Assembly (NCBI RefSeq): GCF_030384885.1
Contig: NZ_CP128613.1
DNA: 64,000 nt
Reading direction: 5' to 3' (one strand)
DNA from: Escherichia coli
Lineage (GTDB): Bacteria; Pseudomonadota; Gammaproteobacteria; Enterobacterales; Enterobacteriaceae
In this document: piece by piece, positions 55,435-58,765 of the stretch
How positions within the stretch are numbered: position 1 is the stretch's first letter
Layout of the letters: the number at the start of each line of letters is the position of its first letter
Position numbers and translations under genes: made by a program
The notes under the pieces: generated by a model
Database searches by the model: none
Seen by the model: the letters and a program-made list of their open reading frames with translations, nothing else
What the model was told of the DNA's origin: nothing

Positions 55435-56718
55435 TTAGTCTTTAGCTGTTGCATTTTGTTTATGAAACAGTTCACGGAACACCGGATAAATATCATCCTG
55501 GTCGCGGATATGCTGCATCGCAAAATTGTCGAAAGTAGATTGCAGATGTTCATATTCTCGCCACAGTGTCTGATGAGCGCGACGGGTAATTTCGATATAG
55601 CTGTAATAACGAACAACGGGCAATAATTTTTTCGCCAGGATTTCATGGCAAAGTGGAGAGTCATCGGCCCAGTTATCGCCGTCCGATGCTTGTGCCGCGT
55701 AAATATTCCATTGCGCCGGGTTATAACGCTCTTTCACCACCTCATCCATCAGTTTCAGGGCGCTGGAAACAATGGTACCGCCAGTTTCCTGTGAGTAGAA
55801 AAACTCATGTTCATCGACTTCTTTCGCCTGGGTATGGTGCCGGATGTAAACGACTTCCACGTTCTTATACGTTCTGCTAAGGAACAGATACAGCAGAATA
55901 TAAAAACGCTTAGCCATATCTTTAGTGGACTGATCCATTGAACCCGAAACGTCCATCAGGCAAAACATCACTGCCTGGCTGGAGGGATCGGGTCGTTTTT
56001 CGTAGTTCTTGTAACGTAAATCGAAGGTGTCAATAAAAGGGACGCGTTCAATTTTGGCACGTAATTCTGCAATTTCTTTGCGCAGACGTTCCTCTTCCAG
56101 TAGTTGCGCAGGCTCACTGTTGCTGATGATGGCCAAATTCTCTTCCAGCGCATGAAGTTCCCGCCGCTTGCCCGCCGTCATGGCTGTGCGTCGCGCCAGT
56201 GAGTTCTGCAATGAACGCACAACGCTGATATTGGCAGGAACGCCGTTAGCGGTATAACCCGCCCGATGCGTTTTATATTCGGTCAGCTGGCGTTGTTGGT
56301 TTTGTTTCAGATTCGGTAAGGCCAAATCTTCAAAGAGCAGATCAAGATACTCATCTTTCGAAATCTGAAAGACAAATTCATCCTGACCTTCACCATCCTG
56401 GCTGGCCTGGCCCTGACCACTGCCGGAACCACCGCCGCCGCCCTGGGGGCGTTCAATGCGGTCATTCTGGACGAAATGGTCATTGCCCGGATGAACGCGG
56501 TGGCGCAGGCCGCCACGTCCCTGATGAAACATCGGTTCGCTAATATCTTCCGTTGGAATGGATACGGACTCGCCTCTGTCGACGTCAGTCACCGAACGCT
56601 TATTAATGGCCTCGGAGATCGACTGTTTAATTTGCGCTTTATAACGGCGTAAAAAACGCTGGCGATTCACCATGCTTTTGTTTTTGCCGTTCAGACGCCG
56701 GTCAATAAACCAGGTCAT
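55435..56718 (-). CDS. yeaH: DUF444/vWA-like protein YeaH
   Basis: 427-aa product [35 protein letters not shown]... with poly-Gly segment ([12 protein letters not shown]) and vWA-like C-terminus. Confidence 0.9.
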
Positions 56719-56830
56719 ATGCCCCCCGTACTACATTTGCCAACTGTTTGCTACGCCTGTGTTGCCGCTTCTCTGGCCCACGGTTCGCTGTCGTTGTAGG
56801 CCCGGTAGCATGCGTACCGGGCCATGGTTG

Positions 56831-58765
56831 TTAAGACGATTTACGTACGCGCAAATACCATTCGCACAGTAAACGCACCTGTTTACGGGTGTAGCCTTTT
56901 TCCATCATACGGTCGACAAAATCGTCGTGTTTCTTCTGCTCGTCGGTTGACGTTTTGGCGTTAAACGAAATAACCGGCAACAGCTCCTCGGTATTAGAGA
57001 ACATTTTCTTCTCAATAACCGTGCGCAGTTTTTCATAGCTGGTCCAGTTCGGATTGCGTCCGCTGTTATTCGCTCTGGCGCGCAGTACGAAGTTGACAAT
57101 CTCGTTGCGGAAATCTTTTGGATTACTGATCCCCGCCGGTTTCTCAATTTTCTCCAGCTCGGCGTTGAGAGATTCGCGGTCAAATAGCTGCCCGGTATCC
57201 GGGTCGCGATACTCCTGATCCTGAATCCAGAAATCTGCATACGTGACATAACGGTCAAAAATGTTTTGTCCATACTCAGAATAGGATTCAAGATACGCAG
57301 TCTGAATCTCTTTACCGATAAACTCGGCATATTTCGGGATCAGATAACCTTTCAGGAACTCCAGATAGCGTTCTGCCTGCTCTTGCGGGAACTGCTCGCG
57401 CTCGATCTGCTGTTCCAGGACGTAGAACAGATGAACAGGGTTTGCTGCCACTTCCACGTGGTCGAAGTTGAACACGCGAGAGAGGATCTTAAACGCAAAA
57501 CGCGTGGACAGACCGTTCATCCCTTCATCAACGCCTGCGTAGTCACGATATTCCTGATACGACTTGGCTTTCGGATCGGTGTCTTTCAGACTTTCGCCAT
57601 CATAAACCCGCATCTTCGAATAAATGCTGGAGTTTTCCGGCTCTTTCAGACGCGAAAGAATGGAAAAACGAGACAGCGTTTCCAGCGTGCCAGGTGCGCA
57701 GGGGGCGTGAGTCAGTTCACTATGATTAAGCAATTTCTCGTAGATTTTGATCTCTTCGGAAATACGCAAGCAATATGGCACCTTCACGATATAAACACGA
57801 TCGAGGAAGGCTTCGTTGTTCTTGTTATTACGGAAAGTGACCCATTCGGATTCGTTCGAATGGGCGAGAATAATCCCGTTAAACGGCAAGGCGGAGATAC
57901 CTTCCGTACCGTTGTAGTTACCTTCCTGAGTGGCGGTTAACAGGGGATGCAGCACTTTAATCGGTGCTTTAAACATCTCGACAAACTCCATGATCCCCTG
58001 GTTGGCGCGGCACAGTGCACCGGAATAGCCGTAGGCGTCCGGGTCATTCTGCGCGTAGTGTTCGAGTTTACGAATATCGACTTTCCCAACCAGCGCGGAG
58101 ATGTCCTGGTTGTTCTCATCACCGGGTTCCGTTTTGGCGATAGCAATTTGTTGCAGAATTGACGGCCAGACCTTCACTACCCGGAACTTAGTGATATCGC
58201 CACCAAATTCATGCAGGCGTTTTGCCGCCCACGGCGACATGATGGTGCCGAGATAACGGCGAGGAATGCCATACTCTTTTTCCAGAATCTGCGCATCTTC
58301 CTGCGGATTGAAAAGACAGAACGGATGATCGTTGACCGGGCTCCGCTCACCGTTAGCGCTTAATACATAGATCGGCACGAGCTGCATTAATGATTTCAGT
58401 CGCTCAGCAAGCGATGATTTACCCCCACCCACAGGCCCCAGCAGATACAGGATTTGTTTCTTCTCCTCCAGCCCCTGAGCCGCGTGTTTCAGATAAGAGA
58501 CAATCTGTTCAATCGCGTCTTCCATGCCGTAAAACTCTTCAAAGGCCGGGTAACGTGCAATGACCCGGTTAGAAAAGAGTCGAGAAAGTCTGGGTTCCTG
58601 GGCTGTATCGACCATGACAGGCTCACCGATAGCCATCAATAGCCGCTCAGCCGCGTTGGCATAAGCACTGCGATCTTGCCGACAAGTGGTAAGAAACTCC
58701 TGCAGTGTGAACTCTTCGTCCTTGGCAGCTTCATATCGCTGGCGATAGTGATCGAATATATTCAT
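56831..58765 (-). CDS. yeaG: PrkA-family serine protein kinase YeaG
   Basis: 644-aa product MNIFDHYRQRYEAAKDEEFTLQEFLTTCRQD... with Walker A (GPVGGGKSS). Confidence 0.93.
   Translation of the reverse strand: MNIFDHYRQRYEAAKDEEFTLQEFLTTCRQDRSAYANAAERLLMAIGEPVMVDTAQEPRLSRLFSNRVIARYPAFEEFYGMEDAIEQIVSYLKHAAQGLEEKKQILYLLGPVGGGKSSLAERLKSLMQLVPIYVLSANGERSPVNDHPFCLFNPQEDAQILEKEYGIPRRYLGTIMSPWAAKRLHEFGGDITKFRVVKVWPSILQQIAIAKTEPGDENNQDISALVGKVDIRKLEHYAQNDPDAYGYSGALCRANQGIMEFVEMFKAPIKVLHPLLTATQEGNYNGTEGISALPFNGIILAHSNESEWVTFRNNKNNEAFLDRVYIVKVPYCLRISEEIKIYEKLLNHSELTHAPCAPGTLETLSRFSILSRLKEPENSSIYSKMRVYDGESLKDTDPKAKSYQEYRDYAGVDEGMNGLSTRFAFKILSRVFNFDHVEVAANPVHLFYVLEQQIEREQFPQEQAERYLEFLKGYLIPKYAEFIGKEIQTAYLESYSEYGQNIFDRYVTYADFWIQDQEYRDPDTGQLFDRESLNAELEKIEKPAGISNPKDFRNEIVNFVLRARANNSGRNPNWTSYEKLRTVIEKKMFSNTEELLPVISFNAKTSTDEQKKHDDFVDRMMEKGYTRKQVRLLCEWYLRVRKSS

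Follow-up and report, generated by a model that had tools for sequence, protein, structure and literature searches.

The prkA-yhbH genes of Bacillus, with spoVR, fall into the same three families (PF08298/PF06798, PF04285 and PF04293) as the module to which yeaG and yeaH of Escherichia coli belong, and prkA has the DUF444 gene as its partner there, as in E. coli. They are distant orthologues with a role in sporulation, not in Gram-negative starvation; ATPase activity was shown for B. subtilis PrkA (PMC9512850), and the biochemistry of Bacillus PrkA proteins was without kinase activity (PMC9512850, PMC13001217). AAA+/vWA-MIDAS systems (MoxR/RavA-ViaA, NorQ-NorD, CbbQ-CbbO, BchI-BchD and midasin) resemble YeaG-YeaH in a possible working mode, not in family membership: YeaG belongs to the PrkA AAA+ family and not to MoxR, it adds a 260-aa domain modelled as helical, and its module adds SpoVR as a third component. 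In E. coli, yeaGH was named as an operon (PMC4664914, PMC10954441), turned on by NtrC and sigma-54 at nitrogen starvation and by RpoS in stationary phase and under other stresses (PMC4664914, PMC10954441) from RpoS- and RpoN-dependent promoters (PMC10954441). YeaG and YeaH jointly brake metabolism, and the mutant phenotypes are common to YcgB (literature including PMC10954441 and bioRxiv 10.1101/072470).

The locus was analysed within a 64-kb stretch of E. coli DNA (the window), which is 100% identical to E. coli strain 2013C-4282; all features lie on the minus strand unless stated otherwise. The yeaG coding sequence (56831..58765) encodes a 644-aa PrkA-family protein according to the open reading frame, Pfam, NCBIfam and RefSeq (WP_001019882.1), and yeaH (55435..56718) encodes a 427-aa DUF444 (YeaH/YhbH) protein with a Gly-rich linker and a C-terminal vWA fold; RefSeq labels the identical DNA yeaG and yeaH. 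YeaG matched AAA_PrkA (PF08298) at 1.3e-187, the PrkA C-terminal domain (PF06798) at 8.7e-71 and the NCBIfam equivalog NF011999 (PRK15455) at 1342 bits (cut-off, 576 bits), and YeaH matched DUF444 (PF04285) over its full length at 3.9e-191 and NF003708 at 842.8 bits (cut-off, 466 bits); against the Bacillus model TIGR02877 (spore_yhbH), YeaH scored 238 bits, below the cut-off of 468. These scores put both family assignments, PrkA and DUF444, well outside anything expected by chance. An earlier note on this DNA had described a 644-aa PrkA-family frame carrying GPVGGGKSS and a 427-aa DUF444 protein with a poly-Gly linker, and had proposed a domain search as the check; both families were supported by Pfam and NCBIfam, the motif was located at residues 110-118 of YeaG, and the Gly run starts at residue 93 of YeaH. 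The intergenic distance, given there as 113 nt, is 112 nt (56719..56830).

The yeaG-yeaH locus was found in 5425 of 5426 complete E. coli genomes, and its neighbours are those of yeaG-yeaH in K-12 (b1783-b1784), with mipA divergent upstream and cdgI downstream. In amino-acid sequence, YeaG is 100% identical to its K-12 counterpart, YeaH is identical at 425 of 427 residues (differences S48R and G427D), the 245 nt upstream of the yeaG ATG are identical, and the K-12 gap is likewise 112 nt, with two loop changes in the intergenic hairpin. This agrees with the earlier remark that nothing in the sequence is unusual, and the locus is an ordinary, intact core E. coli yeaG-yeaH operon that was already known. 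Between the window and K-12, yeaG differs by 72 synonymous and no non-synonymous nucleotide changes, and YeaG shares 83-89% identity with homologues from Vibrio, Shewanella and Alteromonas; the silent changes and the high identity across orders strongly suggest constraint on YeaG, which by sequence comparison ranks among the most conserved proteins in Gammaproteobacteria. A special imported patch at yeaGH was considered and rejected, since the 2-6% divergence from K-12 is patchy throughout the 13 kb that were compared, with nothing particular to yeaGH. Since a direct YeaG homologue search gave relatives at 86-100% identity only, which are unsuited to a diverse alignment, diversity was taken from the neighbours of distant YeaH homologues.

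Upstream of yeaG, a sigma-54 (-24/-12) promoter, TGGCATGAGAGTTGCT, was located at 58869..58884 with one mismatch to TGGCACG-N4-TTGCW. In 21 Enterobacterales loci the pattern TGGCAY-N5-TTGCT is kept 94-129 nt before yeaG, and in two it lies further upstream; Vibrionales and Alteromonadales lack it. The site predicts a transcript start at -93 relative to the ATG (window 58858), which coincides with the start of the leader in PMC10954441. A candidate extended -10 element of the sigma-S type, TCTACGCTTAA, lies at 58931..58941 (-176..-166 from the ATG); it is assigned by motif match only, being the one place in the 64-kb window that fits KCTAYRCTTAA exactly, and its -10 core, TCTACGCTT, does not vary among 14 enterobacterial sequences. 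The NtrC consensus TGCACC-N5-GGTGCA had no match at three or fewer mismatches in 58885..59200, and NtrC control of yeaGH therefore rests on published ChIP-seq (PMC4664914). The promoter scan proposed earlier thus returned sigma-54 and sigma-S elements but not an NtrC consensus site, and induction at nitrogen starvation and in stationary phase, which had been put forward as established, is borne out by these motifs together with PMC4664914 and PMC10954441. A 75-aa open reading frame in the same region (58762..58989), whose terminal ATGA overlaps the yeaG start codon, was considered as a coupled upstream gene and was rejected because its ATG-started frame is kept in no related species, not even E. 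albertii, and because the region holds promoters.

The 93-nt yeaG leader contains a conserved hairpin and an SdsR site adjoining the ribosome-binding site. The hairpin (58799..58830), in which GGGAGCC (-65..-59) is paired with GGCTCTT (-40..-34), was predicted by per-sequence folding in each of the 24 Enterobacterales leaders examined; the loop sequences are unrelated, and some changes on both arms preserve pairing. RNAalifold, run on 22 leaders aligned with MAFFT, missed it owing to misalignment of the variable loops, so that covariation support, coming from per-sequence folding alone, is only qualitative; an Rfam search of the yeaG-yeaH locus, hairpin included, gave no real match. The SdsR pairing site, CCUGUGCUAAAA, occupies 58785..58796 (-31..-20) and is complementary to UUUUAGCGCACGG of SdsR (duplex, -14.6 kcal/mol), and across 14 genera and species its GTGCT core does not vary and its flanks hardly do. 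Pairing of SdsR at -31..-22 was shown experimentally, and SdsR with Hfq later lowers yeaG translation (PMC10954441). Folding of the full-length SdsR-leader duplex gave an unrealistic whole-molecule pairing that was no better than shuffles (9% did as well), and the SdsR evidence used here is limited to the short published core pairing. The yeaG ribosome-binding site AGGA (58775..58778) was read directly and lies inside a block, CGAAAGGACGGCAT, that is invariant in the alignment. The gene for this trans-acting repressor of yeaG translation (PMC10954441), sdsR (ryeB), sits in the same 64-kb window outside the operon, at 1798..1897 on the plus strand (Rfam RF00111, 114.4 bits; gathering score, 38 bits).

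YeaG consists of a PrkA-type AAA+ ATPase module followed by a C-terminal PrkA domain that is predicted to be helical. The Walker A motif (residues 110-118; Walker A lysine, K116) is invariant in the family alignment, as are the FVEMFK and HSNE motifs and R232; the invariant [D/E]260-F-V-E263, H302-S-N304-E, R232 and R323 are candidates for Walker B, sensor 1 and arginine finger. K116A and R232A mutants of YeaG failed to complement (PMC4664914). Sequence matches to YeaG in the PDB comprised one deposited PrkA-family structure (9xip/9xiq/9xir; 30 chains across three entries) and otherwise Lon AAA+ modules only. In YeaH, a disordered Gly-rich linker (residues about 93-106) is followed by a DxSxS motif at residues 256-260, and 113 family members (37-59% identity) all carry the MIDAS residues D256, S258, S260, T315 and D346. 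Structure prediction gave a Rossmann-like alpha/beta vWA fold for the C-terminal half, which is thus modelled as a vWA fold whose metal-binding MIDAS site is complete and invariant. The YeaH family had no solved relative in a sequence-profile search of the PDB, and Pfam VWA_2 reached only E=0.065 (14.3 bits over 26 residues, below the 27-bit cut-off). The vWA-like domain proposed earlier accordingly stands on the predicted fold and the aligned MIDAS residues but was not returned by the domain search.

Where loci were long enough to show adjacency, yeaH lies directly downstream of yeaG in 79 of 79, from Enterobacterales to Alteromonadales, and a DUF444 gene is immediately 3' of prkA in the metagenome loci L083-L085, L089 and L090 as well. 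In 45 non-enterobacterial loci, and in diverse metagenome loci, spoVR directly follows yeaH; a SpoVR homologue was not found in the 64-kb window, the third gene of the module being detached in Enterobacterales, as already published for spoVR/ycgB in E. coli (bioRxiv 10.1101/072470). If yeaG and yeaH were mere neighbours with independent functions and separate transcription, the strong hairpin within the 112-nt gap and the strong ribosome-binding site of yeaH itself (GGGGGG, 56722..56727, 3 nt upstream of the ATG, by direct reading), which is conserved across Enterobacterales gap sequences, could be taken as their signs. The hairpin, however, a G+C-rich GGCCCGGTA-N7-TACCGGGCC at 56799..56823 (8 nt past the yeaG stop), has no T-run after it, and the gap holds no promoter-like site. 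At the same gap position in E. albertii, Citrobacter, Enterobacter and others, the arms are altered yet still pair, and in several of these species the gap has REP-like palindromes as well; we infer that the hairpin stabilises the mRNA or is REP-like and is not a terminator. A terminator-like hairpin of 11 pairs followed by TTTTAGCT was instead found by consensus scan at 55402..55430, 5 nt past the yeaH stop, and by this motif match is the putative end of the operon. Moreover, mutants of the two genes have phenotypes in common (PMC10954441, bioRxiv 10.1101/072470), yeaG, yeaH and ycgB show cofitness in six bacteria (bioRxiv 10.1101/072470), and the YeaG and YeaH proteins increase together in an sdsR mutant (PMC10954441). 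Together with the constant adjacency, these observations leave independent neighbours with almost no probability, and that reading is effectively refuted; the conserved operon described in the earlier note is upheld by the adjacency, RefSeq annotation, family models, promoter motifs and both published studies.

For the activity of YeaG, the name 'protein kinase YeaG' in the annotation corresponds to a genuine Hanks-type Ser/Thr kinase phosphorylating metabolic enzymes, with YeaH and YcgB as accessory proteins or substrates. In-vitro autophosphorylation and casein phosphorylation by E. coli YeaG are credited to Tagourti 2008, as cited in PMC10954441 and bioRxiv 10.1101/072470, a yeaG mutant is described as having an altered phosphoproteome, and K426A and Y382stop mutants do not complement (PMC4664914). 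The failure of K426A shows that the C-terminal domain is functionally needed. Residues 375-644, however, matched no protein-kinase Pfam family even at E<=10, and whole YeaG matched no kinase family at E<=0.001. The C-terminal domain was modelled with moderate confidence (pLDDT 76, pTM 0.52) as all-helical, with no match to a kinase and no predicted beta-sheet N-lobe; the fold libraries lack the solved homologue 9xip, so that the fold search of this domain had no positive control. K426, the proposed catalytic lysine, is present in the window but is glutamine in a single metagenomic sequence, the otherwise intact homologue L090, where the neighbouring DUF444 and SpoVR genes are retained. B. subtilis PrkA was neither autophosphorylated nor a kinase (PMC9512850), and B. 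anthracis PrkA has no kinase P-loop and undetectable activity (PMC13001217). A kinase mechanism, as the earlier note had it, is therefore not sustained: with no kinase family or fold match, K426 not strictly kept and the Bacillus PrkA proteins without kinase activity, the label on YeaG is annotation only; it is contested in published work and found no support in the present tests, and we regard a true kinase as unlikely. Still less probable is a Lon-like ATP-dependent protease that acts on specific proteins in starvation with YeaH as substrate adaptor. Lon proteases were the only other PDB sequence matches, around Walker A (E 0.007-0.03), and B. subtilis PrkA digests alpha-casein slowly, in a reaction that depends on ATP and is sensitive to PMSF (PMC9512850). 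The weak similarity to Lon spans only some 55 residues of the AAA+ module (residues 74-127), neither a Lon protease domain nor an N-terminal Lon domain was detected in YeaG, and Pfam found no Lon_C or other peptidase family; the casein digestion needed 24 h (PMC9512850). The weak protease activity of B. anthracis PrkA was lost on further purification and blamed on a contaminating E. coli hydrolase, and its authors conclude that active-site residues are missing (PMC13001217).

The most likely mechanism, by analogy with other AAA+/vWA pairs, would be an AAA+ motor (YeaG) working with a MIDAS adaptor (YeaH): YeaG would be an ATP-driven motor, probably ring-forming, and the MIDAS domain of YeaH may let it grip and remodel target proteins. 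A Hanks-type kinase cascade is less likely than such remodelling. Taken as a whole, the locus is very probably the core yeaG-yeaH operon, a co-transcribed minus-strand pair with an AAA+ motor and a MIDAS partner as its likeliest mechanism. A wider reading is offered only tentatively, at somewhat below even chances. It holds that 'PrkA serine kinase', as the widespread annotation runs, names the wrong kind of protein and that YeaG, YeaH and YcgB would form an AAA+ motor/MIDAS adaptor/SpoVR machine that remodels or disassembles its targets and so shuts down metabolism in starvation. On this reading the module, with its near-ribosomal conservation, has been borrowed by megaphages and jumbo phages, and its expression would also be gated by the previously undescribed, conserved stem-loop of the yeaG leader adjoining the SdsR site.

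The window itself is of little import, as it carries a core operon whose YeaG is identical to the well-studied K-12 copy. The chemistry of YeaG is nevertheless disputed (kinase, protease or neither) despite its high conservation, and recognition of YeaH as a MIDAS-bearing vWA protein yields a concrete, testable model of an AAA+ motor with a MIDAS adaptor. If that model is true, the 'kinase' annotation in thousands of genomes would have to be read differently.

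The two long open reading frames described in an earlier note as a yeaG-yeaH stress kinase operon were confirmed on the minus strand, with yeaG at 56831..58765 (644 aa) and yeaH at 55435..56718 (427 aa); the gap between them, given there as 113 nt, is 112 nt. The Walker A motif GPVGGGKSS (YeaG residues 110-118) and the glycine-rich run of YeaH (from residue 93) were present as claimed, and a DVSGS motif occupies YeaH residues 256-260. The PrkA and DUF444 assignments were upheld by domain search, in which YeaG matched AAA_PrkA (1.3e-187), the PrkA C-terminal domain (8.7e-71) and the NCBIfam equivalog PRK15455 (1342 bits; cut-off, 576 bits), and YeaH matched DUF444 (3.9e-191) and NF003708. 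The RefSeq names are 'protein kinase YeaG' and 'YeaH/YhbH family protein', and the neighbours are mipA (upstream, divergent) and, in RefSeq, cdgI (downstream), a layout identical to that of K-12. The 4-kb region showed 100% identity to the 2013C-4282 chromosome of E. coli and was matched at 95% identity or more in 5425 of the 5426 complete genomes of the species. Compared with K-12 (locus L002, 6909..8843), yeaG differed at 72 of 1935 nt, all silent, so that the YeaG proteins are 100% identical; YeaH carried two substitutions (S48R and G427D), and the 245 nt that precede the yeaG start codon were the same. Divergence from K-12 specific to yeaGH was considered and rejected, because the patchiness (0-5.8% per 500 nt) spans all 13 kb compared. 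The operon is real, it had been identified correctly and it was known before, and the copy in the window holds nothing unusual, as had been noted.

A vWA domain in YeaH was not recovered by domain search (VWA_2, E=0.065 over merely 26 residues), and no solved relative was found in the PDB with the single sequence or the family profile; the assignment was therefore examined by other routes. An alignment of 113 DUF444 proteins (37-59% identity), gathered by scanning 1.84 billion representatives, contained just 13 invariant columns, and five of these, D256, S258, S260, T315 and D346, form the classical MIDAS pattern DxSxS...T...D. A structure prediction and this alignment together show that YeaH has a vWA fold and that its MIDAS site is intact; the earlier vWA-like call was correct, but a plain domain search would not reveal it.

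A species scan with one genome each returned 80 loci. YeaG identity was 99.8% in E. albertii, approximately 98% in Enterobacter, approximately 95% in Serratia and Yersinia, and 83-89% in Vibrio, Photobacterium, Shewanella, Aeromonas, Pseudoalteromonas and Alteromonas; YeaH was less conserved (64-76% in the last six genera). The pairing was conserved as proposed, with yeaH directly 3' of yeaG in all loci of sufficient length (gaps of 20-233 nt). A SpoVR/YcgB gene (PF04293, E ~1e-181) follows immediately in 45 non-enterobacterial loci; it is detached from yeaGH in Enterobacterales, and no homologue was found within the 64-kb window. The prkA-DUF444-spoVR triad was also found in a diverse set of metagenome contigs, to which distant homologues of YeaH had led, and its occurrence there and outside enterobacteria fits the cofitness reported for yeaG, yeaH and ycgB across six bacteria (bioRxiv 10.1101/072470). 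YeaG and YeaH are reported to act jointly, loss of either shortening the recovery lag and impairing long-term survival (PMC10954441, PMC4664914).

PrkA, or the entire triad, is also present in phage contexts. In the metagenome locus L089 (2392..7235) the flanking genes encode PDDEXK_1, an Enc34 ssDNA-binding protein and DNA polymerase A, and the metagenome locus L085 (2551..8162) adjoins a Phage_phiTE_241_C gene and has an additional gene of 308 aa, without a Pfam match (5776..6702), between the DUF444 and SpoVR genes. PrkA homologues occurred in 17 GenBank phage records, with identities of 62-65% in 630-640 kb megaphages, 59% in the Ralstonia jumbo phage RsoM2USA, and 26-28% in the Thermus phages phiYS40 and TMA. 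The 30.8-kb record of 'Enterobacter phage LAU1' (MN688132.1, phage record H11) carries at 1..1932 a YeaG gene 97.7% identical to E. coli YeaG; this end of the record, which derives from a prophage, has the look of chromosomal DNA from the host.

Stress induction of yeaGH was borne out by published sigma-54/NtrC and sigma-S control, with later lowering of expression by SdsR (PMC10954441, PMC4664914), and by promoter motifs. A sigma-54 site, TGGCATGAGAGTTGCT (58869..58884, minus strand), has one mismatch to the consensus; TGGCAY-N5-TTGCT lies 94-129 nt 5' of yeaG in 21 Enterobacterales loci and farther upstream in two others, and was found in none of the Vibrionales, Alteromonadales and Aeromonadales loci examined. 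Its -12 GC at -106/-105 predicts a transcript start at -93 relative to the ATG, exactly the leader 5' end of a published reporter (PMC10954441). A sigma-S extended -10 element matching KCTAYRCTTAA (58931..58941, minus strand; -176..-166) occurs once in the 64 kb, and its core TCTACGCTT is invariant in 14 enterobacterial sequences. The promoter scan proposed earlier thus located sigma-54 and sigma-S elements but no NtrC consensus upstream of yeaG at up to three mismatches, so that the case for NtrC control depends on published ChIP-seq. Between mipA and yeaG, the block GATGAGTTRTTGATATGYCATTGAAA (58980..59005, minus strand; -240..-215), also invariant in 14 enterobacterial sequences, coincides in part with sigma-70-like hexamers of the mipA strand; because these lie on the opposite strand, this and other conserved upstream blocks may be part of the promoter of the divergent gene mipA. 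A 75-aa frame (58762..58989, minus strand) whose ATGA end overlaps the yeaG start was dismissed as a chance ORF, being unconserved in relatives and spanning the promoters.

The yeaG leader varies hardly at all between -75 and -1. A site at -31..-20, CCUGUGCUAAAA, on the minus strand, is complementary to UUUUAGCGCACGG (nt 29-41) of SdsR (-14.6 kcal/mol), a published translational repressor of yeaGH (PMC10954441). The sdsR/ryeB gene (1798..1897, plus strand; RF00111, 114 bits) lies approximately 57 kb from yeaG, opposite its antisense partner sraC/ryeA (1757..1901, minus strand; RF00101, 175 bits). Unrelated Rfam matches in the window were a cspA thermoregulator (17391..17851, plus strand; 135 bits) and the sRNA sroD (37347..37432, plus strand; 115 bits). 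Just 5' of the SdsR site, a stem GGGAGCC/GGCTCTT (58799..58830, minus strand) was predicted in each of the 24 leaders examined from Enterobacterales, with loops unrelated in sequence between genera (that of Brenneria holds an insert of ~150 nt) and a few two-arm changes preserving pairing (GGGGGC/GCTCCC in Serratia; GGGAGAGC/GCTCTCTT in Dickeya); it matched no Rfam family and was not recovered by RNAalifold from a MAFFT alignment. A hairpin without a T-run directly after the yeaG stop codon (56799..56823, minus strand), whose arms differ in relatives with pairing kept, may stabilise the yeaG portion of the transcript; in several relatives the gap between the two genes also contains classic REP-like palindromes, GCCGGATAAGCG...CGCATCCGGC. 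Downstream of yeaH, a hairpin that resembles a terminator and has a T-run (55402..55430, minus strand) marks the putative operon end.

The 'kinase' label exceeds the evidence. A classical kinase cascade would accord with the self-phosphorylation and casein phosphorylation reported for E. coli YeaG, as cited in PMC10954441 and bioRxiv 10.1101/072470, but YeaG matched no protein-kinase family, even with residues 375-644 at E<=10, and the proposed catalytic K426 is glutamine in a 47%-identical homologue (metagenome locus L090) that keeps its DUF444 and SpoVR neighbours. The Bacillus subtilis PrkA binds and hydrolyses ATP and is not a kinase (PMC9512850), and the kinase and protease activities of B. 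anthracis PrkA, published as a clade III AAA+ protein, were negligible after removal of a contaminating hydrolase (PMC13001217). That last result also counts against YeaG as a Lon-like protease, a reading favoured by the slow degradation of casein by B. subtilis PrkA (PMC9512850) and by PDB matches to Lon AAA+ modules; these matches were weak and confined to the AAA+ module near the Walker A motif, the only other match being one PrkA-family protein (9xip/9xiq/9xir, E=7.5e-51). YeaG 375-644, modelled on an alignment including homologues down to 40% identity, was almost all helix at moderate confidence (pLDDT 76, pTM 0.52), and 9xip was absent from both fold libraries, leaving the comparison with no positive control. 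Walker A, the FVEMFK and HSNE motifs and R232 were invariant in the full-length alignment. Since none of the alleles K116A, R232A, K426A and Y382stop complements (PMC4664914), both YeaG domains are needed, whatever their role.

YeaG contains an AAA+ module, and the likeliest working mode of YeaG-YeaH, together with YcgB, is that of an AAA+ motor and MIDAS partner, with the kinase cascade and the Lon-like protease as rival readings. An AAA+ ATPase gene stands beside a MIDAS-bearing vWA gene in MoxR/RavA-ViaA, NorQ-NorD, CbbQ-CbbO, BchI-BchD and midasin, systems in which the vWA partner grips the target and the motor remodels it. YeaG-YeaH shares this gene architecture; YeaG is not a MoxR family member, so the likeness concerns a possible working mode and not membership. 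By this analogy, the vWA/MIDAS domain of YeaH would hold target proteins, the YeaG motor would remodel them, and the C-terminal PrkA domain would be a substrate or regulatory domain particular to the family. The remaining interest lies in the protein family and not in the window copy: the conservation of YeaG out to Vibrio, Shewanella and Alteromonas is unusually strong for a protein of disputed function.
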